Notes under the pieces: model-generated
Seen by the model: the letters and a program-made list of their open reading frames with translations, nothing else
Told to the model about the DNA's origin: nothing
Database searches by the model: none
Position numbers and translations under genes: made by a program
Shown here: piece by piece, positions 7,474-31,199 of the stretch
Layout: every line of letters starts with the position of its first letter
Position numbering within the stretch: position 1 is the stretch's first letter
Assembly (NCBI GenBank): GCA_964389675.1
Contig: CAYMEV010000001.1
Span: 220,539 to 284,538, forward strand
DNA: 64,000 nt
Direction: 5' to 3'
From: an uncultured Candidatus Sumerlaeota bacterium
Lineage (GTDB): Bacteria > CAYMEV01

Positions 7474-7504
7474 TTATAATCCCTCCCGGTTTATTTCATA
7501 AATC

Positions 7505-7533: not shown

Positions 7534-7659
7534 TCATTTTATCCATAAAACGGCTCAGTAACGCTAAAAGGCCTTAATTGACCCTTCTATTTTTTTCTTT
7601 GCTGGATGAAATATGCTGTTAAACTGGATTTTCTTATTAAATAAGTATCTGGGTAAATA

Positions 7660-8544: not shown

Positions 8545-8706
8545 AATATGCAAATGATAATAATTTTAATTTTTTTCTGAATAATGTTAATTATTTTCTT
8601 GCATATATTAAAATACATGGTATATATGCATAATTCTCAGCATAAAATTTATTATGCAGGGGATAAATAACATATTAATAGTTATTAGTTTAACTAAGGA
8701 GAATTT

Positions 8707-8988: not shown

Positions 8989-9018
8989 CAACTGTTTTCC
9001 AATAGATGAACTTCCAGT

Positions 9019-9048
9019 AAAAGGATGCCTTCGGGCATCCTTTTTTTT
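9019..9048 (+). terminator. Intrinsic terminator, probably bidirectional
   Basis: AAAAGGATGCC-TTCG-GGCATCC-T8 between convergent genes. Confidence 0.92.
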
Positions 9049-9154
9049 CTTTTAAATTTTTCCTTCTGCCCGCTTATTGATCAGAAAGATCCAAACCACC
9101 CATATCATATCTCAATTTTCAGGAGTTTAAACCGGAAAGATACTATCGGGAATA

Positions 9155-10033: not shown

Positions 10034-10048
10034 ATGCTGTATGTTTTC

Positions 10049-11499
10049 CTAAAACTGGAAATAGATAAATTCAATGCTTTTCCCCCAGTTTCCGTTAAAA
10101 TATATATATCCGAGCAGCAAAAAGTAGGATGCCCATCTCACTGATAAATTAAGGTTTGCAATCTTTTCAATTGCATATTCATTATCCCTTCCCATCCATT
10201 CTATGAATATGAATACAGCTACCAGAACAATAATGGCTGATGCCTGTCCGCTTGACTGGAAACTTGGAACTGAGAACAGTGATGCAGAGAATATCTCCCC
10301 TATGTAGTCAAATGCATGCTTTAAGCTGTCTGCCCTGAAGAATATCCAGGCAAACAATGTAAGGGCAAATGTTGAAAATATCATAAATGCCTCTTTCAGG
10401 CTTGGTATTGCTTTCCCTTTTGCTGCAATATCCAGATTTGACCTGTTTTTGTTCATTAGCATAAGGGGAAGAAAATATGCTGCATTAAGAGCCCCCCAGA
10501 CTATAAATGTCCAGTTGGCGCCATGCCAGAAACCGCTTACTATAAATATTATAAAAGTATTCCTGATCTTTTGAAAATTTCCGCCACGGCTTCCGCCAAG
10601 CGGAATATAGAGATAGTCCCTGAACCATGTCGAGAGGGAAATATGCCATCGCCTCCAGAATTCAGCAATATCACGGGAAAAATACGGGAAGGCAAAGTTC
10701 CTTATCAGATTGAACCCGAAAAGCCTTGATGTTCCTATCGCTATATCTGAATAGCCGGAAAAATCGCCGTATATCTGAAAAGCAAAGAACAAAACACCAA
10801 GGACTAGAGTACTCCCGGAATATTCTGCAGAGTTGCTGAATATCATATTTGCATATATTGCGCAATTATCCGCTATCACAATCTTTTTGAAAAGCCCCCA
10901 GAGGATCTGCCTGCACCCGTCTGATGCCTTATCATATTCAAATTTTCTCTTTTTGAAAAACTGGGGAAGCAGCCGGGTTGCTCTTTCTATCGGTCCTGCT
11001 ACAAGCTGGGGAAAGAAGCTGACGAAAGCCGCGAAGGCTATAAGATCGCTTGTAGGCTTCATTTTCCTCCTGTAGACATCAATTGAGTAGCTTAATGTCT
11101 GGAATGTGTAGAAGCTGATCCCTACAGGCAGGATTATGTTTAATGAATTGGGCTTTATTTCCATACCGAAAAAGGAGTATGTGATTATAAAATTATCCAG
11201 GAAAAAATTATAGTACTTAAAAACCCCGAGAAGGCTAATGTTCACTTTAATGCTTATCCAGAGAATGATCTTCCTCTTATACGGGGTTTTCTGGTCTTTC
11301 AGCAAAAGCCCCACACTGTAATCTATGAGGGTACTGAAGATGCTCAATGACAGAAACCTCCAGTCCCAGCATGCATAGAAAAAATAGCTTGGGATAACGA
11401 CCAGGAGATTCTGGAGCTTCAGGCTCCTTTTGTGACAAACCAGTATAGAATGAGTACTATTGGGAGAAAGACTGCAAAATCTAAAGAGTTAAATAACAA
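10049..11499 (-). pseudogene. MBOAT O-acyltransferase (AlgI/PatA-like) with a 5' frameshift
   Basis: LPVGISFYTFQ, FFPQLVAGPI, FWRRWHISL and GFWHGA motifs. The typical N-terminus MLFNSLDFAVFLPIV (TTG 11499, GGAGG RBS) is in another frame; the shift is near 11428-11431. Confidence 0.8.
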
Positions 11500-11709
11500 T
11501 TGCTGTTCCTCCGGACTGAAAGGTCCTATGCATAATTCTCACACGCTTCAATGGACAAGAAATATTAATGTACTGCCATATTAAAGTCAAATCAATTTTT
11601 TTGCAAAAGCGGATAAAATTTTCTTGACCGGATATGATTATAAACGTATCATCGCTTGAACCTGCAGGTATGGCAAGTTACCGAAAAGACTGCATGTTCT
11701 GATAATAAT

Positions 11710-14700
11710 ATGAGAACAAAGAAAAATGCTTCTAATAATATTCCTGCCCTAAAAAAGACTATCCTTTCCATTGTCCTGTTTATTATAATATTTTCCCTGG
11801 CCACATGTCTTTTTATCATGAAATCGCATCACCTGGCTGGCATCAGATTATCTGTAAAACCCGTCAGCGGAAAAGATGCTGATTACAGCGTTTTTCTTAT
11901 AAAGGGGAAAAACCAGGCAATTCCCGCAATAGATGGTGAAACCAGAAACATCGGCGCAACAGGCCTATGGATACAGATGCCATCCTCTCAAAAAGATAAT
12001 ATTGAGAATCTGTCCCTGAGGATAGGGTCTGAGATTTACAGCTATGACAGGAAAAGCTTCTACAGCGCATGGAAGGAAATTGATGCTGATGAGCTCTCAG
12101 AAGTGGAGATAATGCAGGGTATTGACGACTATAATGCAAACAGGCCAGATATGATCACCCTCATGTCCCCTGATGAAATAAAGCTCCGCTCTTCCTTTTT
12201 GCCAGGATTATCAGGGCTTATTAACTATAAGGGTGATCCGGCCCTTCTCTTTCTGCCTCTGCTGATAAGCATTTTTGCATGTATTATGGTAATTCTTATC
12301 CTTGAAAACAGGATCTCTTCTTTTATCAGCATTAATAATACCCTTTTGTTCCTGCTCCTTTATACTGTTATAGCTTCTTTTCTGCTGCCTCATGGTATAA
12401 ACAGCACTTTTGCTTCCCTGCTTAAAGATATTCTGATTATTTTTGTAATCATAGGCGCATTTGCTTATCCTGCATTTCTAAAAAGATCCGGCAGGTTCTC
12501 CTTTGTAAAAGGCTCTGAAAGATTAAAGATCCCTGACTTCATCTTTCTTCTTATACCATTGACACCAATCATGCAGTATATTTTCCTGAACCAGAAAGAC
12601 CTGTCCATTAAGGACTCCATTCTGGCCTTCATGTTTTTTGCCTTAATAAGTGCTGTATTTTGCATTGGCATACCCGTCCTGTTTTCTGCTTTTGCCTCAA
12701 AAATAATACTTATTACAGTATCTTCCGGTTTCTTATATATAATTTTTAATATGACCGCATTATCAGCAGGCAATAAGTGGGTAGGCGGCAGGGGGCAGTT
12801 TGAGATTCAGCTCGCAGTCCTCTTAATAACCATCCTGGTTCTGCTTCTGGGGAGATTACTTCCAAAAAGCCTTTTCAATACAGCAGTGATAGCATTTTTC
12901 CTCGTAAACACCCTGGCAGGGTTCCAGGCAACAGGAAGCACTTCAGATACTCCCGAAGAAATCCGGGAACCGATATTGGTAAAAGAACTGGGGGACAGAG
13001 AGCCTGTCAGGGAAAACCACATCTTTCTGCTCGTTTTTGAAGCCTATGCAAATTTTGAGACAATGCTTCACTATGGATTCGATAACAGTGACCAGCTTGC
13101 ATACCTTGAAGAGAAAGGTTTTAATATATATGACAGTAGTTACTCACTCGGCCCCTGCACCCTTACATCAATGTCCCGCGTACTTTCCATAGACAACAGC
13201 CCGGCCGGTAATCCCAGGTCTCATATTGTGGGTGGCATTGTAACACGCCTTCTGGGCAAATACGGATATAAGACATACTGCAGGACGCCTAACAATTATC
13301 TCTACAGGGGGCTTGAGCCTGGAGATATAAAATACGACTTCTACTATCCCGAATTAGTAGCCTCTGAAAACCTCTCCATAATAATCAATGCAATACTTGA
13401 GGGAGAATTCCGGCATACTGCCGGTTTTGCCGAATTTGAAACGACCAGGTACCATACCTATCTTGAAAACAAAAGATATGTTCTTAAAAACAGGCACAGG
13501 ACACCCGTATTCATGTATTCACACAGCGGTGTCCCCGGCCACAGCCAGTCATCAGGCAAATGCCTCCCTGATGAGAAGTTTCTTTACTTTGCCGGAATAA
13601 AAAAGGCGAACGAGGAAATGAAGGAGGATATAGAAACAGTAATACAAAATAACCCCGATGCAATAGTAATAGTAGCAGGGGACCACGGCCCCTATCTTAC
13701 CAAGAACTGCGCATCCCTTGTATATCACAGCATGGAGGAGATTGACAGGTATGATGTCCAGGACAGGTATGGCCAGTTCCTGGCAATAAGGTGGCCAGAA
13801 AAGGAATATTCTGAAAAATTAGATATTAGGGTCTTTCAGGACATTATGCCTGCAGTCCTTGCCTGGTTATACGATGACCCTTCACTCTTCGATACTTTAA
13901 GGATACAGGACAGGATCATATCTGACAGGAATGTGACCGGGCAGGTATATGTTGATAACGGCATGATCGTAGGAGGCTTAAACGACGGCGAACCTCTGTT
14001 TAATGATCCCTCCTGCAGGAGTCGGGCCCATGCAGACATTGTACCCGGGTCAAATGCTGTTATCAGCCTGGCAGATACCTCTCTGGAGGGAACCTATCTA
14101 TGGTCATATGATGAAGATAGACAACCATCTATTTCTGCAGATAATTCCAGCTGGGAAAGAATATCAGAAATGGTTGCTGACAGGCTGAAAGCAGGCAATA
14201 TTACAGGAGATCAGCTCCCTGAGATAGTAGGCACATTTCCAGGGCACGGCCTGTGGTATTACAGCTTTTCTCATAATTCATGGATAAATATACTCGGAAA
14301 CGCATACACATTCGGCGATTTTGCTCTGATAAAAAAGGGCGCGAATGGAAAAGAGCAAATTTTCATCTCACTGGAAGGGCTGGGGCTGTATTTGGTAGAA
14401 TCCAGCGGGCAATACAAACGAATTCTGCCGGTAACTGCAGATTCCGTGCTCAGCGGCAGATTCAGTCAGTCCGCCGACTATCTCTTCATAGGGGTCGCCG
14501 GAAAAGGAAACCTTGACGGGTTATATGTATATAATGCCGGGATCGGTGAATTCACCAGGATAGTAAAGGATATTCCCCTCCAGATGGCATCAGCTGACAT
14601 AAACGGGGACGGCTATGATGAGATTATATGCGCATTCAGGCAGAAGGGCACCTACACGGGAATGTTCTCCCCTTCTGAACCTCATAAGGGAAACGAAGAA

Positions 14701-15102
14701 GAGATAAAGAAAAATCCTGAATTTATACTCTCTGATGGCATTGCTCTAAACCACAAATTCAGCAGATTGATCGGCCTGGAATGGGAAAGGATACTCAAGG
14801 ATGTTCCCGGGGACAGGTATTTAATCTCTTCAGCAGACATTGTGTCAGGCAATGGCAAAGAGATCTTCCTTACCCACAGCAATGCAACATATTATTATGT
14901 ACATGAAAACAGGGGATGGGTCAAATTCACCAAAAACCCTCTTGAAAAGATAATTTCTGGAAAATTTACAAAAAAAGGACAGCACGATGACCTCATTGCC
15001 CAGGACAGGTCCAATAACGGCATTTTCCTTTATATGTCCTCAAGCGGCAAATGGGAACAGATAGCCCCTTCCGGGAATGTGTCAGCAATGCAGGCCTTCT
15101 GA
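11710..15102 (+). CDS. Large membrane protein with alkaline-phosphatase/sulfatase-fold (LtaS/EptA-like) domain and C-terminal FG-GAP-like region
   Basis: About 9-10 TMs; VFEAY, PCTLTS, HSGVPGH and AGDHGP motifs; ADINGDGYDEI repeat motif. Confidence 0.65.
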   Translation: MRTKKNASNNIPALKKTILSIVLFIIIFSLATCLFIMKSHHLAGIRLSVKPVSGKDADYSVFLIKGKNQAIPAIDGETRNIGATGLWIQMPSSQKDNIENLSLRIGSEIYSYDRKSFYSAWKEIDADELSEVEIMQGIDDYNANRPDMITLMSPDEIKLRSSFLPGLSGLINYKGDPALLFLPLLISIFACIMVILILENRISSFISINNTLLFLLLYTVIASFLLPHGINSTFASLLKDILIIFVIIGAFAYPAFLKRSGRFSFVKGSERLKIPDFIFLLIPLTPIMQYIFLNQKDLSIKDSILAFMFFALISAVFCIGIPVLFSAFASKIILITVSSGFLYIIFNMTALSAGNKWVGGRGQFEIQLAVLLITILVLLLGRLLPKSLFNTAVIAFFLVNTLAGFQATGSTSDTPEEIREPILVKELGDREPVRENHIFLLVFEAYANFETMLHYGFDNSDQLAYLEEKGFNIYDSSYSLGPCTLTSMSRVLSIDNSPAGNPRSHIVGGIVTRLLGKYGYKTYCRTPNNYLYRGLEPGDIKYDFYYPELVASENLSIIINAILEGEFRHTAGFAEFETTRYHTYLENKRYVLKNRHRTPVFMYSHSGVPGHSQSSGKCLPDEKFLYFAGIKKANEEMKEDIETVIQNNPDAIVIVAGDHGPYLTKNCASLVYHSMEEIDRYDVQDRYGQFLAIRWPEKEYSEKLDIRVFQDIMPAVLAWLYDDPSLFDTLRIQDRIISDRNVTGQVYVDNGMIVGGLNDGEPLFNDPSCRSRAHADIVPGSNAVISLADTSLEGTYLWSYDEDRQPSISADNSSWERISEMVADRLKAGNITGDQLPEIVGTFPGHGLWYYSFSHNSWINILGNAYTFGDFALIKKGANGKEQIFISLEGLGLYLVESSGQYKRILPVTADSVLSGRFSQSADYLFIGVAGKGNLDGLYVYNAGIGEFTRIVKDIPLQMASADINGDGYDEIICAFRQKGTYTGMFSPSEPHKGNEEEIKKNPEFILSDGIALNHKFSRLIGLEWERILKDVPGDRYLISSADIVSGNGKEIFLTHSNATYYYVHENRGWVKFTKNPLEKIISGKFTKKGQHDDLIAQDRSNNGIFLYMSSSGKWEQIAPSGNVSAMQAF

Positions 15103-15257
15103 TCCAATATTATCCCTGGGTAAAGGGACCAATAATATTGATCTGAATCTTCTCATTTTGCTTGTTTCAGAAGCAGGATAATAATAAAAAACAATAGCAA
15201 TATTTTAATATTTGGATTAAAATAAGGCTTAAAACAAAACATACAAAGGAGATAACA

Positions 15258-16817
15258 ATGAAGAGAAATGCAGGGATATTATGGATTTATATAACTGCAT
15301 CAATAGCCTTGTTAATGGCTGTTTCATTTGCTTCCATACCTGTTTTAGCCGATAGCAGTAATAATGCGCCGGACAGTAATGTCCTGGAAAAAGTCCTTTC
15401 CGACTTTACAGAATATGCTGAACAGGCCAGAAAGGACTGGGGGATACCTGGAATGGCGATATCCATTGTCCAGGGAGATAAAATGATATATGCCAGGGGA
15501 TTCGGTATGAAGAAGCTTGGAGAAAGCGACCCTGTCGATGAGAATACTATCTTCCAGATAGGATCAACATCCAAGGCATTTACTGCTGCCCTCGTAGCCA
15601 TGATGATTGAAGAAGAGAAACTGGGGTGGAAGGACAAGGTCATCGATTATATTCCGGAATTCATGATGTATGACCCATGGGTAACAAGGGAATTCATGGT
15701 TTATGACCTGATGGCTCAGCACAGCGGAATGCCCGGGTATGCAGGGGATATTCTCTCCTTTGTCGGTTTTGACAGAGAGCATATTATTCACTCTATCAGG
15801 TATATAGAACCCAAAAGCAGTTTCCGTTCCGAATTTGCCTATATGAACAATCTTTTCCTGGTAGCAGGCGCACTGATAGAAAAGGTATCAGGAAAGACCT
15901 GGGAGGAAAACCTTCAGGAAAGAATTCTCAATCCCCTTCAAATGAGCAGTACAACATATACACGTGAGGGCTTTACAGGTTCTGACAATGTTGCTTATCT
16001 CCACAAGAACAAAAATGGCAAAGCAGTTCCTTTGCCTATGGACTGGAACTTTATAGACTGGGTATATACATACGGGCCGGCAGGCGGCATCAATTCCAAT
16101 GCTGTTGACATGGCAAAATGGGCAGCTTTTCAGCTGAACGGCGGCTTATATGACCAGAAACAGCTTATAAGCAGGAAAAATATGGATTATATGCATTCAC
16201 CTAAGACTATCATTGAGCAGGAAGGTTTCCCGGGAAGGAATTATTATGACCTTGCATGGGTTACCAGTGAGATTAAACCCTACCCGGCCTTTATATGGCA
16301 TACAGGAGGGACATCAGGCATAAAATCGCTTATCCAGCTTGTCCCTGAACTCGACTTAGGCTTTGTTTTCCTGACGAACATGTGTGACAATAAACTCCCT
16401 GAAGCACTCGCCAAGAGGTTTCTCGACCTTTACCTGGAGAAAACGCCCGGGGACTGGAGCGCTGAAAGCCTCAGGGAATATAAAGCCGGCCATGAGGATA
16501 AGGATATTGAAAAGCCTGAAGAGCCAAAGGCTAAACCCCTGCCTCTTGATGTTTATTCAGGAACTTACAGCAGTCCTGTCTATGGTGAAGTTAAACTGGA
16601 CATATCAGGCCAGAACCTCATTCTCACCATAGGGCCCAAAAAGGCAAAGTTTCTCCTGTCGCCATCAAACAGGGATACTTTCAGGCTGTCAATACCGGAT
16701 ATCGGAGGTGATTCAGGTTTTGTCACATTCAATATTAATGAATCCGGAACAGCTGACAGAATGGTGATAGAAGCCCTGAATGACGGCAATATAGGATGTT
16801 TTAATAGGACAGAATAG
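15258..16817 (+). CDS. Secreted serine hydrolase, beta-lactamase class C-like
   Basis: Signal peptide; STSK (SxxK), YMN and HTG motifs; C-terminal DUF3471-like domain. Confidence 0.88.
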   Translation: MKRNAGILWIYITASIALLMAVSFASIPVLADSSNNAPDSNVLEKVLSDFTEYAEQARKDWGIPGMAISIVQGDKMIYARGFGMKKLGESDPVDENTIFQIGSTSKAFTAALVAMMIEEEKLGWKDKVIDYIPEFMMYDPWVTREFMVYDLMAQHSGMPGYAGDILSFVGFDREHIIHSIRYIEPKSSFRSEFAYMNNLFLVAGALIEKVSGKTWEENLQERILNPLQMSSTTYTREGFTGSDNVAYLHKNKNGKAVPLPMDWNFIDWVYTYGPAGGINSNAVDMAKWAAFQLNGGLYDQKQLISRKNMDYMHSPKTIIEQEGFPGRNYYDLAWVTSEIKPYPAFIWHTGGTSGIKSLIQLVPELDLGFVFLTNMCDNKLPEALAKRFLDLYLEKTPGDWSAESLREYKAGHEDKDIEKPEEPKAKPLPLDVYSGTYSSPVYGEVKLDISGQNLILTIGPKKAKFLLSPSNRDTFRLSIPDIGGDSGFVTFNINESGTADRMVIEALNDGNIGCFNRTE

Positions 16818-16910
16818 GCCTTGTTCCAGGTATTGCCGGGCAAAATCTGATGCAATTCCTTATATGTCCTTAAATAAGAAATTCAGATTAGTAAATGGTG
16901 ACCGGTCAGA

Positions 16911-18020
16911 TTACCCCAGGGACCTTTCTATGATCATTTCAGCAAATTTTGGATCCGTGCTGAAGATATAATTGCCTGCCCTGGATGGTTCAAACATCTG
17001 CGGAATGAGCCTTTTTATCTGATCCCTTCCGGCATAGGAGAGAATTTTTTCAGAAAGGCTGAGTGAATCTACCAGCTCTGCCGTCTTTTCCATAATATCG
17101 AGTATATGAGCTTCCGCTTTGCTGTTTTTGATATAATACCGGATCAGTTCAGAGAGGCAGAAACCGGACGCCAGGCCATGAGGGACTTCCAGGTTCAGCG
17201 TAACCGGGTATGAGATGGAGTGGGCGATCGCGGTCCTTGTCCGGCTGATCGATAATCCTGCCAGAGTGCCTGCCCATTGCATTTTAGCCCTGTATTCAAT
17301 ATTACCCGGCTCAGTAAGGACAGCAGGCAATGCTATTAAAGCAAGCTCCAGTGACTGCATGGCAAAAGCCAGGGATACAGGCGTCCTGTTCCTGTTCCAG
17401 ATCGATTCAAGTGCATGTGAAACAGCATCAAGGCCCGTATTGAGAGTGATCTGGCCGGGAAGTGAAAGAGTAAGATCAGGGTCGAGAAGTGCTAATGAGG
17501 GATATACATGGTCATTTGAAAAGGAGAATTTCCTGCCTGTCTCAGTATCCCAGACCGTGGCAAAAGGCGTTACTTCCGAACCAGTCCCTGCAGTTGTGGG
17601 AACAGCGACAAGATATAATCCGGGCCCGAAGTCCGAATCCTTTTTTCTGCGGAATATATCAGAAAGGGACATCATCCCGGGGTTTGCAAGCATAACAGCC
17701 AGGACCTTTGCAGTATCAATCACGCTTCCTCCGCCAATTGCCAGGACTGAGGAAAACTGCTTTTCAGACAGGCTTCTGCGGGCATTGTCAATGCTTTCAA
17801 GCTCCGGATTAGGCGTGACACTGTCATATACCGCTACTTCTGACGGCTTTAATATATCCTGAATTTTCGGTATAAGCCCCTTTGCAGAAAAGGATGGGCT
17901 GGTGACGACCAGTACATTGCCTGATCGTATATTCTCAGAGACAGAAAAAAGGATGCCCCTTCCTGATTTTATCCTTACAGGATTATAGTGGCTCCATGAA
18001 TATTGGATGCTGTCAGTCAT
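16911..18020 (-). CDS. Phosphonoacetaldehyde reductase (iron-containing ADH family)
   Basis: GGGSVIDTAK, PTTAGTGSE, AHSISY and HG motifs; overlaps the Ppd gene. Confidence 0.85.
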   Translation of the reverse strand: MTDSIQYSWSHYNPVRIKSGRGILFSVSENIRSGNVLVVTSPSFSAKGLIPKIQDILKPSEVAVYDSVTPNPELESIDNARRSLSEKQFSSVLAIGGGSVIDTAKVLAVMLANPGMMSLSDIFRRKKDSDFGPGLYLVAVPTTAGTGSEVTPFATVWDTETGRKFSFSNDHVYPSLALLDPDLTLSLPGQITLNTGLDAVSHALESIWNRNRTPVSLAFAMQSLELALIALPAVLTEPGNIEYRAKMQWAGTLAGLSISRTRTAIAHSISYPVTLNLEVPHGLASGFCLSELIRYYIKNSKAEAHILDIMEKTAELVDSLSLSEKILSYAGRDQIKRLIPQMFEPSRAGNYIFSTDPKFAEMIIERSLG

Positions 18021-19137
18021 TTGCCTTTTTCATAAACATTCTCTTGTTCTCTTCAGGGGTGCTTTCAGGCCTTGAAAGGTCTTCTCTTGAACCGGGTTTT
18101 ATAATTATTTCAAACAGGACAGGCCCGCTGGTTTTATCTATCTCCTGCATGGCATTTTTAATGCTTTCTTCACAGCATGCACTGAAATATCCTGAATAGC
18201 CTATCGATTCAGAAAGGCCCTTAAAATCAATATTGCCTGCAACAGTGGGCTGTCCGCCTACTGATTCATGCGAGCTGTTATTAAGAAGTACATGGACAAG
18301 GTTTCCTGGCTTAAGGTCAGCTATAACAGACATCGAACCCAGGTGCATCAGGATAGAGCCGTCGCCGTCCAGGCAGATGACCCTCTTATCCTGCTTAAAA
18401 AGAGCTATACCAAGTGCAATGGAAGACGTATGCCCCATGCTTCCAACGGTAAGAAAATCACACATTGCTTCATCCCTCTCCAGGCGCAGTTCATAAAGCT
18501 CTCTTGATGTCTTGCCTGTTGTAGATATAAGAAGGTCATCAGGCTTTGAACATTTCAGGACTGCCCTTATTGCTGTTTCACGGAACATATTGCTTTTTAC
18601 GCCGGCTATCTTTGCGGATTTATAACTGCTGAAGGTGTTTTTCCTGATGATAATGGCTGATGGAGAATTTGTTTCACCGATCCTGGCAACGGCTTTTTTT
18701 ATTATCTCAGCATAATCTGAATCAGGGCCCATGATCTCATATGGTATTTCAAGTGTTTCAAAAAGCCTTAAAGTGATCCTGCCCTGCTTTCTGTGCTGGG
18801 GTTCGTCCTTTATTCCCGGTTCTCCCCTCCAGCCGACGATAAGAAGCAGAGGTATCCTGTAGACTTCCGGGTCAGTAAGCGAAGCAAGAGGATTGACAGC
18901 ATTTCCGATGCCTGAATTCTGAAGGTAAACAACCCCGGCCCTGCCGGTAGCAAGATGGTATCCCGCTGCAAGCGCAACAGCATTTCCTTCATTTGCAGTT
19001 ATAATATGGGACCTTTTATCCTGCTTATCATCGAGGCATGCGCAGAAGGCCTTAAGAAGAGAATCTGGCACACCGCAGAAAAAATCAAAGCCCCTTTTTC
19101 TCAGCTCGTCAAGAAAATCTCCTGGACAGATCATCAT
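18013..19137 (-). CDS. aepY: Phosphonopyruvate decarboxylase
   Basis: [19 protein letters not shown], and ThDP motif DGDG…NN. Confidence 0.95.
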
Positions 19138-20435
19138 TTACCTCCGGGTATGAGCTCCAGTATCTCTTTTATCGACATCAACTGACCCTCTGACTCCAAA
19201 GCCCTGCAGTTTTCAAGGATAGACCTGGCGGTGCTGATCATGGCAGGGTAAGCGCTTCTGATCAGCTGGTTGGCGTATATGACTATATTTACACCGTGTT
19301 TTATCAGTTCATCTTCCGTTATTGTATTGTAGCTTGTCGGCACAACAACAAGCGGTTTTTTATTCCCAAGCCCATTATACCTCCTGCAGAACTCAATAAC
19401 TTCATCAGGCTTTTTGCTCCTGCTGTGGATCATGATCCCGTCAACTCCGGCATTCAGGTAGCTTTCTGCCCTCTTTATGGCATCATCATGCCCCTTTCCC
19501 AGTATCAGGCTTTCTATCCTTGCAATTATCATAAAATCGTCCGTTGCCTGCACCTTCTTGCCTTCCTTTATCTTATGGCAGAAATTCTCTATGCTGTCCT
19601 GTGTCTGTTCTACCTCAGTACCGAATAGGGAATTCTTCTTAAGGCCGGTCTTATCTTCTATTATTACTGCAGAAACACCCAGCCTTTCAAGGGTCTTTAC
19701 GGTAAAGACGAAATGCTCCGTTCTCCCCCCTGTATCACCGTCAAATATGATAGGCTTGGTGGTAACCTCAAGCACATCATTAAGGGTCCTTATCCTGGAT
19801 GTCAGGTCAACTGCTTCAATGTCAGGCTTTCCCTTGGCGGTTGAATCAGTAAGGCTGCTTGCCCACATTCCGTCAAATTCCCTCCTGCCATTCTGTGTAT
19901 CAATATGCATATTTTCAACTATGAGCCCGGTAAGCCCGTTATGTATCTCCATTATCCTTACAATGGGCTTTACCTGTATAAGCCTCCGCAATGTCCTCCG
20001 CCTGAGGTCCGGCGTTGTGCCTATCTCCTGCAGTGCCCTGTTAAGCTGTGTTGATGAAATGCCCTTGGTGTAAGGAACCTCCACAAGCTTGCCGTTCCAT
20101 TCTGCAAGGGCTTCTATAACCCGCTGGCGGGTTTCTTTCTGAACGCCCTCTTTCCAGTCATCGCCATGGACTACATAATCCGGCCTGAGCTTTTTAAGGT
20201 TGGGAACATAATCAAGTGTGGTCTGTGCAACAACATCCCTGACACCCTTGATATTTTCCACTATTTCCTTTCTCTGCTCATAGGTCATATATGGCAGGCG
20301 CTTATAGCTTGCTATTGCTTCGTCAGTCAGAAGGCCTATTGTAACCTCCCCATATTCCAGCGCTTTCTTAATGATGTTCAGATGCCCTGGATGAATAAGG
20401 TCTGCACTCATACCCACATATACCCTCTTTTTCAT
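19134..20435 (-). CDS. aepX: Cytidylyltransferase-phosphoenolpyruvate mutase fusion
   Basis: N-terminal DLIHPGH (HxGH) domain; PepM signature [10 protein letters not shown] (EDK-X5-NS); ATG 20435 has an AAGGAG RBS. Confidence 0.95.
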
Positions 20436-20508
20436 ATCAGTACTCCTTTTTTGCACTGCCGGACAGCACTAATGGCCTCAAATCTATAAATAACCGTGAA
20501 AGCTAAAT

Positions 20509-21795
20509 TCATTCCGTTTTTTCCTGGCCTCCGGCAGTCCTCTCAATAAAATCAGCTCCTCTTTTTCCGCTTTCACCCGGGAAGCACCATATCCTGTCTC
20601 TGTATTCCTCAATATATCCCTTATATGAATCATCTGCCCTGACCTTCTCAATGATTTCACTGATTTTTGGGCATTCCTCCTCTTTAAGGATATATCCAAT
20701 CTTTCCATCCTTTATAAGCTTCATCAGTGTACTGCTTTTTGACTCCAGGCTGTTCATATCGTATTTTCGGCAATCAACCTCAAAGTCAGTGACAATTACC
20801 GGCCTGGAAAACAAAAACAGATAATCAAATATTATACCTGAAAAGTCAGATATCATGATATCTGACTTTTGCATTGCTTCAAGGCCGTTTCTCTTATTAT
20901 CCCAGGCAAGGTTTTCTTTTTCGGAGTATTTGTCCTCAAATTTCCTGATCATGTCAGGCTCTGTCTTAAAGCTTTGCGGATGAGGCCTGAGTATCAGGCT
21001 GCAGTCCTTATCAGTGAGGATATCAAGCAGAGCACTGCCGAACCTTTTCAGAAAACCCTTCTCCCCCCAGCTCGGGGCAAGCAGTATGGTCGTCCTGCCT
21101 TCCTTTTCATCCTTTTGTTCAGGCATTTCCCGGCTCATGAGGTCAAGGTATGTACTTCCTATAATTTCTACATCCTTTTCAGGCAGATTGCGGTTTTTTT
21201 CCAATTCCCTGATGACTGACAGCTGGTGCTGACCATTTACCAGAACAGAATCAAAATAATCAACGCCGTAGGGGGCATAGGTAGAGGTATCCTCGAGTCC
21301 GTGAACTATGTGGCAGTAATGCTTTACTTTTTTGCTCCTTTTCAGCTGCAGTACATTCAGGCCCGGTGTCGTCATTATTACCATGTCGGCCTCAAGCCTG
21401 TTCAAGAAATAGAAAGCTTCATAGCCTCTGCCTATATATACCTTTTCAATATTCTCAAGATCGCTTTTCAGTCCGGGATCATCCTCTTCGCTTGCAAAAT
21501 AGCTGCATCTTATATTCCGTCTGTTCATTTCCTCGATAATGGGGAGGAATACATTCCAGTAATGAGCCATCTCTGAATAGAAAACAATACCGAATTTCCT
21601 GTTAAGGTCCTTCTTCTTGGTCTTGAACACATAGTTCAGCCTCTCATAGACGAAATTCTTGATCAGGTAGAACAGGGTCGCTGCCAGGGCGATTACAGCC
21701 CCGACGATCATGCTTCCGCTCCCGGGGTCAAGGTATGCATAGGCGGGCAGCGGTATCAGAAAAACAAGGATAAGGATCAGTAATATTTTAGACAT
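20509..21795 (-). CDS. CDP-glycerol:glycerophosphate transferase family protein (TagB/TagF-like)
   Basis: LLAPSW, RPHP and ISDFSGIIFDY motifs; N-terminal leader, YLDPGSG, then a TM helix. Confidence 0.8.
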   Translation of the reverse strand: MSKILLILILVFLIPLPAYAYLDPGSGSMIVGAVIALAATLFYLIKNFVYERLNYVFKTKKKDLNRKFGIVFYSEMAHYWNVFLPIIEEMNRRNIRCSYFASEEDDPGLKSDLENIEKVYIGRGYEAFYFLNRLEADMVIMTTPGLNVLQLKRSKKVKHYCHIVHGLEDTSTYAPYGVDYFDSVLVNGQHQLSVIRELEKNRNLPEKDVEIIGSTYLDLMSREMPEQKDEKEGRTTILLAPSWGEKGFLKRFGSALLDILTDKDCSLILRPHPQSFKTEPDMIRKFEDKYSEKENLAWDNKRNGLEAMQKSDIMISDFSGIIFDYLFLFSRPVIVTDFEVDCRKYDMNSLESKSSTLMKLIKDGKIGYILKEEECPKISEIIEKVRADDSYKGYIEEYRDRIWCFPGESGKRGADFIERTAGGQEKTE

Positions 21796-22510
21796 TGCAA
21801 AAACTCCGATTAATTAAAGTTTTATTCTTTAGCTTTTCATTTTCAAAATAATCATAGCCGATATGTTTCAGATAATTGAATATATTATTGCAGGTCCAGT
21901 ATATAAGAAGGCCTGAAGGAGAATTATAAAGCAGTACAAAAAAGAGAAGGGATATGAAATACATCTGCAGCCTCTCATTGGCTGTGAGGTTTTTTCCGTA
22001 TACATGGCCTGCAAGAAGGCTGAAGGCTGTCATAATGAACGGGAGGACATTGATGCTTAAACTGCTGATGCTTATAAGGGAATCAGGCTTTCCAAGGTCA
22101 CTGAAGAACATGAACGATACACCCTTGATAGGTTCATAGCTTGAAAGCAGGTGGTATGCGGCAATAAAGAAGGGTACCTGCAGAAGCAGTCCCATTGACG
22201 ACCTTAATGAGTAGACAGGGTGATAGTTGTTCTGCCTGTAAAGGGTCTTTATATAAAGGTGAAGCTCATAGCCTTTATATACCTTCTTCAGGTCATTAAT
22301 GGCCGGGGCCATCTTTCGCCTTATATCACGCTCTTTGACCTGCATCTTATTTGCAAGGTGGTACAGGGGAAGAGTAACTGCACTGATTATCAGGCTCACT
22401 ATAATTATTGATACCCCGTAACTGCCGGTTATTGAGAATGTAAACTCGATGATCCAGGTTATTATAAATTCTATCGGGTATATAAATATCAAGTATAGAA
22501 CTGATAACAT
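21788..22510 (-). CDS. YidC/Oxa1 family paralogue, short form
   Basis: YGVSII…LPL, coiled-coil hairpin, LLQVPFF, DLGKPD, PSGLLIYW; overlaps the next gene by 8 nt. Confidence 0.82.
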   Translation of the reverse strand: MLSVLYLIFIYPIEFIITWIIEFTFSITGSYGVSIIIVSLIISAVTLPLYHLANKMQVKERDIRRKMAPAINDLKKVYKGYELHLYIKTLYRQNNYHPVYSLRSSMGLLLQVPFFIAAYHLLSSYEPIKGVSFMFFSDLGKPDSLISISSLSINVLPFIMTAFSLLAGHVYGKNLTANERLQMYFISLLFFVLLYNSPSGLLIYWTCNNIFNYLKHIGYDYFENEKLKNKTLINRSFCNV

Positions 22511-22845: not shown

Positions 22846-24096
22846 TTAATCGCCGCTGGAGGACTCAATATTCGGATTCTCGATCCTTCCCATGAATAAA
22901 ATGCTCTTTGTGGAATTGTCAGCAATCAGAAAGATAAAGGGGCGGTCAGCAAGAAAACGCTTTTTTTCCATAGGCGGCGGGGCACTTGTCCTTTTGATCT
23001 CTACGGAGGTCACACCTGCCGCCTCAGTACCCTCTTCATTTACCTCTACAAATGCCTTGTGTCTCACATTGCTGATATACAGGTTTTCCCCGCCGGCTGC
23101 AGCTTTATCATACATTCCTGTAAAATCAGCCTTATTCGAGTCATATGCATCAGTCATGCCCATAGACTGCAGTACAGCATTCAGCGTCACCCCATAGGCG
23201 AGTTTAAATCTGGGTATGGATACATCCACCCTGCAGTACCTCATGCATTGCTCCATATCCCTGAAAAAATCCCCTGAAATAAGATCCTGAGGCTTTTTCA
23301 ATATGCCTGTGCCCTTTTCAGAGGGCAGAACAATAAACATTGACATCTCCCGCTCTGAATAAGGAAGCTCAAGTACCTTGCATCCCCTGTAATCCGCATA
23401 CCTGAGCTTTCCGCTCCTGTTCATCATATCGGCTTTAACAGCTTCACCGGAATTCAGATGAAAATCAGCCTTTTCTGTCCTTCCCGGATCAAATTCAGCA
23501 TCCCAGGAAGCCTTAAAATACACGGCATTTACAAGCACCATCACTGTCAGTGGATCCAGCGCACCTGGAGGTATCATATCCATTATAAGGCCATTTGTGT
23601 TTTCACTGACCCAGTCATTTATCATCCTTCTTACTTTTTCAGGATCCTTGAAATTTACCGGAAAGATATTGACACTGTAATATTTTTTCAAAAGTTCCTT
23701 AAATTCACTGTAGAAAGAATATCCCTCCTGGGGCCATATTGAATTGGCTATCATAAGCCTGATCTTCCCCTCATGCCCAAAACGCCCGAGTTTTTGCATA
23801 ATATCGCTCAGTGCCCTATGAACCTCATTACCTGGGAGTGATAACTTAAGCACATCCTTCATCTGGGTGGCAGTCTCTCCCCCTGCGCCGCCGTATGTCA
23901 TGGCAAGTGCAGATGATATGCTGTAGGGGGATATGAACAGGTTTCCTTCTTTCCTGCATAACTCCCCGAATATATCAACAGCAAAAGCATTGTTATCATC
24001 AACAGCTGTCGCACTTTTGTCCCCGGCATCCAGGACAGGGCATAACAGGACCGGCATCAGCAAAAGCAAAAAAAGAAATATTCTGGAAATAAGCAT
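22846..24096 (-). CDS. Secreted serpin
   Basis: Signal peptide; ISPYSI, VNAVYFKASW, hinge EEGTEAAG, and FLADRPFIFLI motifs. Confidence 0.95.
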   Translation of the reverse strand: MLISRIFLFLLLLMPVLLCPVLDAGDKSATAVDDNNAFAVDIFGELCRKEGNLFISPYSISSALAMTYGGAGGETATQMKDVLKLSLPGNEVHRALSDIMQKLGRFGHEGKIRLMIANSIWPQEGYSFYSEFKELLKKYYSVNIFPVNFKDPEKVRRMINDWVSENTNGLIMDMIPPGALDPLTVMVLVNAVYFKASWDAEFDPGRTEKADFHLNSGEAVKADMMNRSGKLRYADYRGCKVLELPYSEREMSMFIVLPSEKGTGILKKPQDLISGDFFRDMEQCMRYCRVDVSIPRFKLAYGVTLNAVLQSMGMTDAYDSNKADFTGMYDKAAAGGENLYISNVRHKAFVEVNEEGTEAAGVTSVEIKRTSAPPPMEKKRFLADRPFIFLIADNSTKSILFMGRIENPNIESSSGD

Positions 24097-24139: not shown

Positions 24140-24622
24140 TCAGCGATTGCCCCTGTTACCCCTGTACCGCCAGCAGTTTTTCCTGCAGAACATTTTCTTT
24201 TCCCTTCCCCCGCACACAATACGCTTGGAACCGCATTCAGGGCATAAGCAGTCGCCTTTCAATATCTTTTCAAAGTTCTCATATGTTTCCTTCCAGGTAC
24301 TGCCACAGTCCAGGCACTGGACAAGGCATATATTCCTTGTATAGTTGCCGCCCTCTATCCTGATTGTCTTTCCATTTATAAGGCTGTCTGCTATCTTTGC
24401 GCGGGCTGTACCGAGTATTCTCTGAAAGGTCTGTCTCGAAACCTCCATCCTGTTCGCACAAAGTTCATTGTCCAGTTCCTCAAGGTCCTTTAATCTTACA
24501 GCCTCAAGCTCCTCAATATGCAGGACATTCTCCTCAAGTTCGGAAATATCCACATCATAGGGGCCAAAAACCTGCAGAGAGGGAATGAATTCCACCCTTC
24601 TTGGTTTGGTCGGCCTTACCAC
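24140..24622 (-). CDS. DUF134/UPF0251 putative DNA-binding protein with C-terminal Zn ribbon
   Basis: MVRP…EELEAVRLKD…MEVSRQTF…IEGG, followed by two CxxC pairs. Confidence 0.88.
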   Translation of the reverse strand: MVRPTKPRRVEFIPSLQVFGPYDVDISELEENVLHIEELEAVRLKDLEELDNELCANRMEVSRQTFQRILGTARAKIADSLINGKTIRIEGGNYTRNICLVQCLDCGSTWKETYENFEKILKGDCLCPECGSKRIVCGGREKKMFCRKNCWRYRGNRGNR

Positions 24623-25726: not shown

Positions 25727-26599
25727 TCAGTTCTCCTTTTTTTTATTTTCAAAATAGACTAAAATCCTGTTCCATATATTTTTTATTTCTTCAGCAACTC
25801 CCTTAATTTCAGCCCTGACAGGTGTTTTGTATTCCTGCAGGGCCCTTACGATCTCTTTATTAAAGGGTATTTTTCCTATGATCTCAATATCCCTTTCCCT
25901 GCAGAATTCTTCTATCTGACGTGTTATGTCCCTGTTCAGGTCATATTTATTAATGCAGACAAATGACTTTATCCCAAAATGCCCTGCTACCTCCAGCACC
26001 CTTTTTAAGTCACTCAAGCCTGACAGTGTCGGCTCTGTAACAGCCACTACAGCATCTGTACCGGTAATGGATGCGATAACCACACAGCCTATGCCGGGCG
26101 AACCGTCAATAAGCATGAACTTTTCTCCACTGCTGAAAGCCTCAGCATTCTGGCGCAGTTTGGTAACAAGCCTTCCCGAGCCTTCAGCTCCTACATCAAG
26201 CAGAGCATGGGAAAATATCCCGCCATCAGTTTCTGATATGGTAGTAATGCCTGTCTTAATGCTTTTCAGCTTTATTGCCTTATTGGGGCACACAAGGACA
26301 CATGCTCCGCATCCCTCGCATTTATAGGGCATTATACTGATATCTTCGCTTATTGCGTCAAACTCGCATACTGATACGCAAAGGCCGCATTTAATACACA
26401 TTTCTTCATTAATGACAGCCTCCTTGGCTCCGTAAAAATCCTCCTGCCTGATCTTTTTTCCGGATAAAAGCAGGTGAAGATCAGGGGCATCCACATCGCA
26501 GTCAGCGATTATCCTGTCCCTGGCTATCTCGCTGATTGATGAAACGAGAGTGCTTTTGCCTGTTCCGCCCTTACCGCTTATAAATGCTATTTTCTTCAT
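25727..26599 (-). CDS. MinD-like P-loop ATPase with inserted 2x[4Fe-4S] domain
   Basis: SGKGGTGKS, DCDV, two CxxCxxCxxxC motifs, TEPT. Confidence 0.9.
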   Translation of the reverse strand: MKKIAFISGKGGTGKSTLVSSISEIARDRIIADCDVDAPDLHLLLSGKKIRQEDFYGAKEAVINEEMCIKCGLCVSVCEFDAISEDISIMPYKCEGCGACVLVCPNKAIKLKSIKTGITTISETDGGIFSHALLDVGAEGSGRLVTKLRQNAEAFSSGEKFMLIDGSPGIGCVVIASITGTDAVVAVTEPTLSGLSDLKRVLEVAGHFGIKSFVCINKYDLNRDITRQIEEFCRERDIEIIGKIPFNKEIVRALQEYKTPVRAEIKGVAEEIKNIWNRILVYFENKKKEN

Positions 26600-27441
26600 T
26601 TTTCTGCCCTCTCTTTCAATGCTTTATGCAGATCGATGAACTTCTCCCTTATTTCATCATCAGCCTCTACAGGCAGGATGCCGTTTGAATAATCAGCGGC
26701 TATCCGTTCTGAAAAAGGAATTTTCATGATTATCTCTATATTTTCTTTTCTGCAGTATTCATCTATTATCACGATATTATCCTGAGCCTTGTTTATGATA
26801 ACGCTGAACCTTTTATTCAGCTTTCGTAAAAGCTGAACTGCAATATTGAGGTCATACAGCCCGAAAGGGGTAGGTTCTGTGACCAGTATGCAGTAGTCAA
26901 CACCTTCAAGTGTCTCAACAACACCGCATCCTGCTCCGGGTGCACAGTCAATAATTACCTCTGCATCATCCCTGTAATAATTTTTAATCTTCTTGAGTAT
27001 AGGAACACTGACAGGCTCTCCCACATCAAGCCTCCCCTGAACAAAACTCTTATCAGCATTTGCCTCTATGACACCTATTGCCCTGTATTTCCTTGTAATT
27101 GCCTTTCTGGGACAGGCTATCATGCATGCACCGCACGAATGGCAAAGCTTCTCAAATACTATGACACCTTCATTCATGACCGCAAGTGCATTAAACTGGC
27201 AGGCCTCACTGCATTTCCCGCATGAGTCGCATAGAGAGCTGTCTATTGAAGGGTTGAAAACAGTAACATCAAAGCTCTTGTCTATTACAGGCCTGACAAA
27301 AAGATAGCCGTTAGGCTCTTCCACATCGCAGTCTATATATTGCGAAACACCTGCTGTTGCTGCCATACTGAGAGCCACCGTAGTCTTGCCAGTCCCTCCT
27401 TTCCCGCTTAATACGGCAATTCTCACAGGTTCTTCCCCCAT
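26596..27441 (-). CDS. Second MinD-like P-loop ATPase with inserted 2x[4Fe-4S] domain
   Basis: SGKGGTGKT, DCDVEEPN, two ferredoxin motifs, TEPTPFG. Confidence 0.9.
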   Translation of the reverse strand: MGEEPVRIAVLSGKGGTGKTTVALSMAATAGVSQYIDCDVEEPNGYLFVRPVIDKSFDVTVFNPSIDSSLCDSCGKCSEACQFNALAVMNEGVIVFEKLCHSCGACMIACPRKAITRKYRAIGVIEANADKSFVQGRLDVGEPVSVPILKKIKNYYRDDAEVIIDCAPGAGCGVVETLEGVDYCILVTEPTPFGLYDLNIAVQLLRKLNKRFSVIINKAQDNIVIIDEYCRKENIEIIMKIPFSERIAADYSNGILPVEADDEIREKFIDLHKALKERAEK

Positions 27442-27794
27442 TTCATACCGGCATGGCTTTCACCAATCTCACTAAGCCTGCTTAAAGAACCGTTACTGAA
27501 CTCTTTGATATTTTCAGAGACCGTTTTCATCACACCCTTATAGACCGCAACCTTTGAGGAGTTCAGCACCTGCGAAGCATTGGGGCCAAGATTCCCTGTT
27601 ATCAGGGCTTCTATACCCTTATTTATCACAAGCTGGCCGGCAGCCACTCCTGCACCGCCGCCCCCCGGGCTGTTTTCCAGAAACTCAGCATCTCCTGATT
27701 CTGTATCCGCTATACAGAAAAAAGCACATCTTCCAAAGCGTGGGTCCAGCATGCTTTCCAGTGTATTTCCCTGAGATGTTATGCATATTTTCAT
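27423..27794 (-). CDS. NifB/NifX-family protein (orange-protein-like)
   Basis: MKICITS…DPRFGRC…GAGVAA…TGNLGP. Confidence 0.88.
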   Translation of the reverse strand: MKICITSQGNTLESMLDPRFGRCAFFCIADTESGDAEFLENSPGGGGAGVAAGQLVINKGIEALITGNLGPNASQVLNSSKVAVYKGVMKTVSENIKEFSNGSLSRLSEIGESHAGMKWGKNL

Positions 27795-27824
27795 ATTTAT
27801 GCCTCCTTTTCTTTTCTTAAATCT

Positions 27825-27856
27825 ATAATAATATAGTTATGGGCATATGTCAATAA
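27825..27856 (-). promoter_or_regulatory. Sigma70 promoter with overlapping palindromic operator
   Basis: Minus strand TTGACA(27853-27848)-N17-TATTAT(27830-27825); palindrome TTATGGGCAT|ATGTCAATAA at 27837-27856. Confidence 0.75.
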
Positions 27857-28009
27857 TAAAATGGGTAATTTTTAATGGTATTTTGTTTTTATATTTGGAA
27901 CTATCGAGTATAAAGCTGTTTATTCAAAGATCATATTTCAGACATTAGCTCATAATAATGAGCGTTAAGCCCAGGCTTATCCGGCTTATTATTATAAGAC
28001 TGACCAGAA

Positions 28010-28831: not shown

Positions 28832-28836
28832 ATTTA

Positions 28837-30150: not shown

Positions 30151-30235
30151 GTGGCACCTCCTGCAACAGAATATTTAGTAATTACACTGTCTGGATATAT
30201 TATCAATATAAAAAAATCATTGACTGAGGCTGCCT

Positions 30236-31168: not shown

Positions 31169-31199
31169 TTCATTCTCCTTTTAATTTCTATTTCAGGTA

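Follow-up and report, generated by a model that had tools for sequence, protein, structure and literature searches.

A predicted hydroxyethylphosphonate operon of a Candidatus Sumerlaeota bacterium with YidC-like and TagF-like genes and a nearby gene for an AlkP-fold membrane protein

Two described bacterial pathways activate phosphonates with cytidine monophosphate (CMP). In the fosfomycin pathway of Streptomyces (Fom1-Fom2-FomC), 2-hydroxyethylphosphonate (2-HEP or HEP) is converted to CMP-HEP by Fom1 (main text of Rice 2019, PMC6697681, citing Cho 2017), and in the Pnt pathway phosphoenolpyruvate (PEP) mutase (PepM), phosphonopyruvate decarboxylase (Ppd) and 2-aminoethylphosphonate (AEP) transaminase are followed by PntC, which yields CMP-AEP (PMC6697681). 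According to the same paper, most of the bacterial phosphonate capacity is thought to decorate surfaces, LicD-like transferases and glycosyltransferases are downstream candidates, and the steps after activation 'remain enigmatic'. In this study, we analyzed a window of 64,000 nt from contig CAYMEV010000001.1 of an uncultured Candidatus Sumerlaeota bacterium (host assembly of 58 contigs, 93.8% complete, 3.57 Mb), in which a five-gene operon at 16911-22510 on the minus strand joins predicted HEP synthesis to a YidC-like paralogue and a TagF-like enzyme, and in which a gene for an alkaline phosphatase (AlkP)-fold membrane protein, here called c9, lies 1.8 kb from the operon.

The protein families met in the membrane part of this locus have been described from other settings. 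LtaS and EptA transfer glycerol-phosphate and phosphoethanolamine, respectively, by means of a Thr/Ser-metal site, and TagF reportedly has two catalytic or donor-binding histidines. An Arg at the groove position of YidC proteins is essential for SpoIIIJ-type insertion, and specialised YidC paralogues with particular clients exist in Firmicutes. Gtr-type systems comprise a cytoplasmic transferase acting onto a lipid carrier, a small flippase and an outward-facing transferase.

Compared with these systems, the cytoplasmic half of the locus is known Fom1-Fom2-FomC chemistry, and CMP-activated surface phosphonates are the idea of Rice 2019, whereas the membrane half is a widespread, undescribed combination of known folds. 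The main text of PMC6697681 is silent on TagF, YidC and sulfatase, and those of PMC8942020 and PMC8931226 are silent on YidC and TagF; the supplements of these papers may differ or list such neighbours. Literature searches found nothing in print that joins YidC with PEP mutase, with sulfatase and phosphonate or, among the papers listed and judged by title and abstract, with an LtaS fusion, and nothing relevant that joins PepM phosphonates with glycerophosphotransferase, cytidine diphosphate (CDP)-glycerol enzymes or sulfatase. We read the operon, with a probability of roughly 0.6, as a self-contained cassette that places HEP on the cell envelope by head-group transfer through the TagF-like, YidC-like and c9 proteins.

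Operon layout and the predicted CMP-HEP pathway

Five co-oriented open reading frames (ORFs) occupy 16911-22510 of the minus strand. The operon's first gene encodes a YidC/Oxa1-fold paralogue (21788-22510, 240 aa) and is followed by genes for a TagF-like phosphotransferase of the glycosyltransferase B (GT-B) fold (20509-21795, 428 aa), a Fom1-type cytidylyltransferase-PEP mutase (CT-PepM; 19134-20456, 440 aa), Ppd (18013-19137, 374 aa) and a Group III Fe-alcohol dehydrogenase (Fe-ADH; 16911-18020, 369 aa). Neighbouring genes share 8, 4 and 8 nt at three junctions; the fourth is a gap of 52 nt between the TagF-like and CT-PepM genes. An earlier note on this DNA had described five co-oriented genes with three overlapping junctions; both the layout and the limits proved exact, and each gene was confirmed by Pfam or NCBIfam. 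A Shine-Dalgarno-like AAGGGG stands 5' of the ATG of the YidC-like gene, and neither the 52-nt gap nor the region upstream of this gene holds a plausible small membrane ORF. Neither scan for transcription signals found an excess, with 17 promoter sites against 17.7 in shuffled sequence and 11 terminators against 8.7, and TAGACT-17-TATAAT at 22647-22619 is a consensus match from a scan that did no better than the shuffles. The overlaps by themselves suggest that the five genes form one transcription unit. The gene arrangement exceeds chance, because the five-gene order recurs in the nearest relative (locus L004) and the YidC-like/TagF-like pair recurs widely. PepM, the TagF-like enzyme, c9 and the YidC-like paralogue are each present in one copy in 3.57 Mb, all of them inside 11 kb.

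CT-PepM, the sole PepM of the host genome, scored 409 bits with the PEP mutase model TIGR02320 (cut-off 319.55) and 62.6 bits with PF01467; its length is counted from a GTG, an alternative ATG lying 7 codons in. Its cytidylyltransferase (CyTase) domain is identical to the solved Fom1 CyTase 5X3D at 94 of 136 positions (69%, counted by hand; E 2.4e-63), and its PepM part matches 5UNC and 1M1B. Ppd scored 453 bits with TIGR03297 (cut-off 312.5), so that PepM and Ppd, both of which exceed their TIGRFAM equivalog cut-offs, are assigned at equivalog level. The Fe-ADH matched PF00465 with 146.6 bits, and its top NCBIfam model was TIGR03405 for phosphonate-linked Fe-ADH (338 bits, below the equivalog cut-off; next model 176.6 bits). 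No AEP transaminase of the PhnW kind was found in the whole genome, 93.8% complete, in which the best match reached 30.7 bits against a cut-off of 400.8. The genome likewise lacks a fusion of PntC with an aminotransferase (the nucleotidyltransferase (NTase)-aminotransferase of the Tde1415 kind), the best match being 27% identical over part of a generic aminotransferase; the pairing of a LicC-type PntC with an AEP transaminase, which marks the Pnt pathway, is thus absent from the host.

Because the CyTase is Fom1-like, an ADH stands in the place of the transaminase and neither PhnW nor PntC-aminotransferase occurs in the genome, 2-HEP activated as CMP-HEP is a well supported prediction for the pathway product. 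The earlier note had made the same prediction and had reported that no AEP transaminase is in the window, a statement that extends to the whole genome; the 69% identity to Fom1, the ADH in place of the transaminase and the finding that ADH and NTase-aminotransferase never occur together (see below) all agree with its proposal. The operon thus shares with Fom1-Fom2-FomC the same four activities, the same domain arrangement and the predicted CMP-HEP. It differs from the fosfomycin pathway in having no adjacent Fom3/Fom4-type genes and in being translationally coupled to genes of membrane transferase type, and because of this coupling we predict that CMP-HEP serves as a donor here instead of being a short-lived intermediate of an antibiotic. 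With the Pnt pathway it shares the cytidylyl activation of a phosphonate that, for Pnt, is surface-bound (main text of PMC6697681), while the predicted cargo here is HEP instead of AEP and the cytidylyltransferase belongs to PF01467 instead of being a LicC-type PntC.

YidC-like, TagF-like and AlkP-fold proteins

The YidC-like protein scored 89.5 bits with PF02096 (cut-off 35) and 95.5 bits with TIGR03592 (cut-off 84.3). An ordinary YidC of 535 aa, only 24% identical to the operon copy, is kept on another contig of the host genome, and the operon copy is therefore a true paralogue. Its family, with relatives at 40-74% identity, carries an 8-residue insertion and a YNSPSGL motif. The conserved Arg/Lys that the YidC/Oxa1 family carries in its hydrophilic groove, on the first core helix, is replaced by Ser in the window protein; the residue is Lys in the host's ordinary YidC and Arg in YidC2 of B. 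halodurans. In the groove column of the paralogue family, N and S occupy 24 and 8 of 32 rows in one alignment (set A1), and N, S, T and G occupy 14, 11, 9 and 1 of 35 rows in another (set A6). A positive residue (K/R) was found in none of these 67 aligned rows and in none of the 88 domains matched by a regular expression, a check that left 27 cluster members unmatched, and in a profile alignment to 3WO6 the N of the family faces the R of the structure. The YidC N-domain of a relative (the L019 fusion, about 47% identical), taken from an AlphaFold2 (AF2) model of the fusion with a predicted local distance difference test score (pLDDT) of 85, matched YidC2 3WO6 with a TM-score of 0.75 and a root-mean-square deviation of 3.1 A. 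Judged from this relative's model and from the profile scores above cut-off, the family probably shares the five-helix core and the cytoplasmic hairpin of YidC, SpoIIIJ and YidC2, and differs from them by the missing positive groove residue in the members examined and by its constant linkage or fusion to head-group transferases.

The TagF-like enzyme matched PF04464 with 39.7 bits (cut-off 22.1) over profile positions 151-299 of 367 only, and its family profile matched Cps3D 8QOY (9.4e-10), TarL 8VA1 and TagF 3L7I (2.4e-5). H165, R270, H272, D317 and S319 are present without exception in the 35 family members; H272 aligns with the His in the R-x-H stretch of Cps3D, while for H165 no alignment to a catalytic His was obtained. 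The donor-binding GT-B half, including the invariant R-x-H and a D-x-S motif, can thus be aligned with TagF, TarL and Cps3D, whereas the N-terminal half cannot and instead carries a membrane anchor and a motif of its own. Two hydrophobic segments are found within residues 1-50, separated by an invariant Y-x-D-P-G-x-x-G motif (Y21, D23, P24 and G27 in 35/35), and a lysine-rich stretch follows the second segment. The protein is predicted to be membrane-anchored with its catalytic domain in the cytoplasm, because of the position of this lysine-rich stretch. An A-x-A-like site stands immediately N-terminal to the Y-x-D-P-G-x-x-G motif, so that cleavage of the first segment as a signal peptide is conceivable. 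We predict that the enzyme uses CMP-HEP, a donor unlike those of TagF, TarL and Cps3D in being a CMP-phosphonate; the operon has no stand-alone TagD-type gene, its only cytidylyltransferase being the Fom1-type domain.

The third component, c9 (11656-15102, plus strand), is an ORF of 1148 aa with a likely start at the ATG at 11710. Its layout comprises an N-terminal transmembrane helix with a domain of about 140 aa, eight further transmembrane helices, an AlkP-fold domain and a C-terminal FG-GAP-like domain, which gives nine predicted transmembrane helices in all. Pfam reported only a marginal FG-GAP repeat, with no match to Sulfatase PF00884 at E up to 1, and a sequence-profile search of the PDB returned noise only, for which reason a fold search was needed. 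The AF2 model, which spans residues 195-795 and drew on 52 relatives (pLDDT 86.5; predicted TM-score, pTM, 0.84), has eight membrane helices followed by an AlkP fold, and Foldseek matched it to PbgA 6V8Q, EptC 6A82, MCR-1 9NWW, LtaS 4UOR and EptA 5FGN (E 1e-6 to 1e-5, probability 1.0). All 52 family members share D/E268, T/S308, H429, H435, D482 and H483, which were aligned by profile, rather than by superposition on a solved active site, to the invariant D493, T530, H705, D771 and H772 of the fused family described below. Because the acidic ligand, the Thr/Ser, the two His and the Asp-His pair are conserved, c9 looks catalytically competent, unlike PbgA. The polytopic membrane domain, the AlkP ectodomain, the metal ligands and the Thr/Ser are thus shared with LtaS and EptA (MCR-1); c9 differs from these and from PbgA in its eight helices instead of five, its extra N- and C-terminal domains, its position below the Sulfatase Pfam, the partnership or fusion of its type with a YidC fold and a TagF-like protein, and a donor that, by prediction, is synthesised for the purpose instead of being drawn from bulk phospholipid. 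On our reading, the positive-inside pattern, the lysine-rich N-terminus ahead of helix one and the number of helices place both the AlkP domain and the FG-GAP-like domain on the extracytoplasmic side. We predict that c9 is an outward-facing phosphonyl transferase.

Over residues of about 200-790, c9 shows 41-43% identity (E about 1e-140) with the product of the gene that follows the TagF-like gene in loci L005-L009. A 369-nt contig from a separate study (X2 record 8) runs across the junction of the c9 side with the operon, covering 16606-16974 with 0 differences, so that the adjacency is not an assembly artefact of one sample. In the sister genome, tblastn of c9 on the L004 stretch found no match, and an orthologue 55% identical over 1134 residues sits on another contig of that genome. 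Each of the two genomes has exactly one c9 and one YidC-like/TagF-like pair. A gene for a beta-lactamase-fold protein with DUF3471 (15258-16817, plus strand, 519 aa; PF00144 181.8 bits, PF11954), AmpH/PBP4B-like, follows c9 directly in both lineage genomes (64% identity; the sister being G001), and its product is a possible accessory part that may act on the same envelope polymer.

Recurrence, fusions and exchange of cargo genes

The YidC-paralogue profile was scanned against a collection with one genome per species, which yielded at least 585 relatives, and the best 78 loci were analyzed by calling and clustering ORFs. These loci derive mostly from Treponema, Brachyspira, Sphaerochaeta and metagenome-assembled genomes (MAGs) of Leptospirales, with Clostridiales and Lachnospiraceae in addition, and many of the contigs are short. 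A TagF-like gene or a TagF-c9 fusion was present in 56 of the 78 loci, and in 48 of 54 loci the YidC-like gene had the TagF-like gene as its immediate neighbour, read from the same strand. Of the 78 loci, 36 had phosphonate genes (PepM, Ppd or NTase-aminotransferase), namely 35 of the 56 that have a TagF-like gene and 1 of the 22 that lack it. The NTase-aminotransferase fusion, characteristic of the Pnt pathway, occurred in 25 of the 78 loci (L005-L011 and others), none of which had the ADH as well; the ADH accompanied PepM in L004, L013 (in which PepM is truncated by the contig end), L030, L043 and L077, with records from Spirochaetota and Clostridiales. Because the two are mutually exclusive in the 78 loci, the reductase and the transaminase-activator appear to be alternative cargo modules on a common chassis. 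Stand-alone TagD-like cytidylyltransferases take the place of the phosphonate genes in some loci, which suggests that the module accepts other head groups. Surface-glycan genes flank the module in relatives, namely Rml (rhamnose synthesis), GT1, GT2, GT8, GtrII-like and MBOAT genes.

The association was also surveyed in an even sample of 401 genomes of Spirochaetota, the phylum to which L005 belongs. PepM (cut-off E <= 1e-60) was present in 50 of them and the YidC paralogue in 75, a figure that remains after the removal of six genomes with only housekeeping-YidC-like matches (near 1e-41, ORFs of 517-613 aa). The paralogue occurred in 30 of the 50 genomes with PepM and in 45 of the 351 without. 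PepM and the paralogue shared a contig in 21 genomes, at distances within 10 kb in 14, of 10-40 kb in 6 and of 900 kb in 1. The link between phosphonate genes and the module is therefore frequent, not obligate. Classified by ORF length only, PepM ORFs of 533-583 aa (10 genomes) never accompanied the paralogue, and those of about 430-470 aa, the size of CyTase-PepM, did so in 24 of 32 genomes.

The components are separate genes in some relatives and fused in others. L005-L011 encode a separate YidC-like protein (about 230 aa), a TagF-like protein (about 430 aa) and a c9-type protein of about 597 aa, whose gene follows the TagF-like gene directly in L005-L009 and L011. TagF-like and c9-type sequences are fused into proteins of about 1030 aa in L030 and L077. 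The protein P0323 is a YidC-like and c9 fusion, with its first 225 or so residues 46% identical to the window YidC-like protein and with 31% identity to the window c9 over 573 residues, and PF02096 was found in 8 of 10 representatives chosen for their N-terminal extension of 230-270 aa among the best 150 c9 matches in a search of 1.84 billion proteins. The YidC-like domain is most often fused to an AlkP-fold domain, in proteins of about 900 aa that match the Sulfatase and Phosphodiest Pfam families (88 genes in the 78 loci), and in the AF2 model of the L019 fusion the AlkP C-domain matched PbgA, LtaP and MCR-1. A YidC-TagF fusion was not seen, since no PF04464 match was present in the best 120 of 860 longer YidC-like matches. 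In a quick tree, the stand-alone YidC-like proteins accompanied by c9 (the window, L004, L005-L011 and L077) were placed apart from the fused forms, with a Shimodaira-Hasegawa-like approximate likelihood ratio test (SH-aLRT) value of 83, below the mark of 95. Public annotation names the fused proteins 'YidC/Oxa1 family membrane protein insertase' and c9 'hypothetical protein'.

Two sets of loci with fused forms deserve separate description. In L019 (Treponema putidum ATCC 700334), four tandem, full-length YidC-AlkP fusion paralogues (895-953 aa) with two interleaved TagF-like genes occupy 3343-16873, and PepM is encoded about 35 kb off on the same contig. In L055 (Paratractidigestivibacter, Actinomycetota) and L033, the YidC-AlkP genes and the glycan genes flanking them hardly differ from their counterparts in Treponema MAGs (tree branches of 0.01-0.05), which reflects either recent transfer or a mis-binned contig.

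Proposed route, competing explanations and neighbouring genes

The first four steps of the proposed route have strong homology support and would take place in the cytoplasm, where the PepM domain would convert PEP to phosphonopyruvate, Ppd would convert this to phosphonoacetaldehyde, the Fe-ADH would reduce phosphonoacetaldehyde to 2-HEP, and the Fom1-type CyTase domain would convert 2-HEP to CMP-HEP. For the following steps the donor, the acceptor, the order of events and the lipid role of the YidC fold are proposed from the gene content, folds, conserved residues, co-occurrence and fusions given above. The TagF-like enzyme would move the phosphonyl group from CMP-HEP to a membrane lipid or a lipid-linked glycan and free CMP; the YidC-fold protein, paired with c9, may then help the polar head group to reach the outer face, where the c9 ectodomain would hand it to the final envelope acceptor through its Thr/Ser-metal site. 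We infer an analogy to Gtr-type surface glycosylation, with lipid loading inside, crossing and transfer outside, although the families are unrelated and a phospho- or phosphono head group takes the place of a sugar. In other bacteria the same module apparently serves AEP and non-phosphonate head groups.

It is plausible that the YidC-like protein passes on or presents a head group attached to a lipid, given that E. coli YidC has been described as a phospholipid scramblase in vitro (PMC11047089). The often covalent, permanent association with an enzyme and the loss of the insertase hallmark point away from a general insertase. A lipid-moving role of the fold, taken on its own, is nevertheless put forward tentatively, and we are equally hesitant about the wider model in which the YidC fold is a fixed subunit, in most lineages a fused one, of a three-component system for moving small phosphonate or phosphate head groups through the membrane, with the TagF-like enzyme loading the group from a CMP or CDP donor onto a lipid inside, the arginine-less groove passing or presenting it and an LtaS/EptA-like ectodomain completing the transfer. 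A special case in which the TagF-like enzyme polymerises HEP into a teichoic-acid-like poly(hydroxyethylphosphonate) is improbable.

Several observations weigh against the cassette reading. On the side of the pathway, the 338 bits of the Fe-ADH fall short of the TIGR03405 equivalog cut-off of 423.7, so that assignment to the PhpC/FomC type is not reached, and the match of the TagF-like enzyme to its family is confined to the donor-binding half. The loss of positive charge from the YidC groove is not what would naively be expected for an anionic phosphonate head group. The c9 gene lies on the opposite strand and outside the operon, with the beta-lactamase-fold gene between it and the ADH gene; the sister genome carries its c9 orthologue on another contig than the operon of L004, and the c9-operon adjacency is consequently not conserved, although the contig with c9 ends 134 nt upstream of that gene. 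In the surveys, 20 of the 50 Spirochaetota genomes with PepM lack the paralogue, and the 78 loci are the best-scoring ones, dominated by Spirochaetota, so that their counts are not independent owing to kinship.

These points also bear on what the earlier note had proposed beyond the pathway. The co-occurrence survey that it suggested revealed strong recurrence, both in the adjacency of the TagF-like gene and in the enrichment of the paralogue among PepM genomes; the lack of recurrence that the note would have taken as a refutation was thus not seen. Its link between phosphonates and the TagF-like enzyme is borne out by the contrast of 35/56 with 1/22, but the module is not phosphonate-specific, since 42 of the 78 loci have no phosphonate gene within the DNA stretch covered. 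It had regarded the YidC-like protein as heading the pathway in a role not described before; we likewise found no such role in print, but the protein is not free-standing as a rule, being in most relatives the N-domain of an LtaS/EptA-like enzyme of about 900 aa. Its overall picture is supported as to the pathway and the TagF-like association and was too narrow in that c9 was overlooked.

The chief competing explanation, which we consider rather unlikely, is that the YidC-fold protein is a private insertase or chaperone that serves only to insert or fold c9, perhaps also the membrane anchor of the TagF-like enzyme, and moves no head group. It agrees with the membership of the protein in the YidC family, by profile and, in a relative, by fold, with the Firmicutes paralogues that have particular clients, and with the nine predicted transmembrane helices of c9, since an N-terminal YidC domain could aid the insertion of helices of the same chain. 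It is harder to reconcile with the absence of the groove Arg/Lys, essential at this position in SpoIIIJ-type insertion, from 67/67 rows and 88/88 matched domains, and with the retention of a normal YidC by the genome; moreover, the stoichiometric fusion to an enzyme in most relatives, together with the TagF-c9 fusion, is better explained by a permanent subunit.

Two further explanations dispense with an outward transfer of HEP by c9. The TagF-like enzyme might make a phosphonolipid end product (HEP on diacylglycerol or a glycolipid), the AlkP-fold gene being unrelated, to which we assign a small chance. The position of c9 on the other strand and its lack of linkage to the operon in the sister genome would fit, as would the phosphonolipid gene groups of Selenomonas, AEP clusters for which 'multiple sulfatases' are reported (main text of PMC8942020); yet c9-type genes follow the TagF-like gene directly in six loci (L005-L009 and L011), are fused to TagF-like or YidC-like sequences in many clusters, and have been kept as exactly one c9 beside one YidC-like/TagF-like pair by both sister genomes. 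It is even less likely that HEP is an intermediate of a soluble natural product, or that the TagF-like enzyme makes an ordinary polymer of glycerol-phosphate that has no connection with the phosphonate genes. HEP is indeed an intermediate of the fosfomycin, phosphinothricin and methylphosphonate pathways (main text of PMC8942020), but neither the operon nor its immediate neighbourhood contains further tailoring genes, although no genome search for MpnS, HEPD or Fom3 homologues was made. PF04464 owes its name to CDP-glycerol enzymes, but the operon is without a stand-alone TagD-type gene, and unrelated genes would account neither for the three overlapping junctions that bind the TagF-like and YidC-like genes to the pathway nor for the concentration of phosphonate genes in TagF-like loci.

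Should the YidC fold indeed be a fixed subunit of such a three-component system, this would be the first case of a YidC/Oxa1 protein dedicated to an enzyme and used for something other than insertion, and the transfer step that is missing from bacterial phosphonate surface tailoring would be filled. The TagF-like/YidC-like/AlkP-like module is a concrete, testable candidate for the step after activation, with cargo genes that swap between the ADH for HEP, the aminotransferase-NTase for AEP and other cytidylyltransferases elsewhere. For membrane biology it poses the puzzle of a universal insertase fold that has lost its hallmark charge and is firmly tied to small-molecule transferases across hundreds of species, among them gut, rumen and oral spirochaetes. 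The window version, fully split into separate genes, offers convenient separate parts for reconstitution and comes from a candidate phylum of two genomes.

Other genes around the locus were also inspected. A gene for an MBOAT-family O-acyltransferase (10049-11347, minus strand) is divergent from c9 and has a 292-aa gene downstream (the two occupying 9155-11347); in L036, L048 and L051 the surroundings of the module include MBOAT genes from the same BLAST cluster, and the gene may represent a second modification of an envelope polymer. Apart from the beta-lactamase-fold protein, the operon's neighbours by Pfam are a serpin and a DUF134 protein, encoded directly upstream at 22846-24096 and 24140-24622, both on the minus strand; the serpin is a full-length bacterial one with an N-terminal hydrophobic leader (PF00079, 397 bits). 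The serpin and DUF134 had at first hinted at an archaeal host, which was rejected because the ordinary YidC of the genome is of the long, Gram-negative type. Further upstream, 25727-32498 on the minus strand encodes two tandem CbiA/MinD-like proteins with 4Fe-4S domains, an ADP-ribosylglycohydrolase, a UDP-glucose/GDP-mannose dehydrogenase and a 310-aa protein that consists almost entirely of ankyrin repeats. The host phylum is represented in the collection by two genomes only, the host (G000) and the same-genus G002, and DNA near-identical to the window was detected in marine sediment and sediment metagenome runs of different studies.

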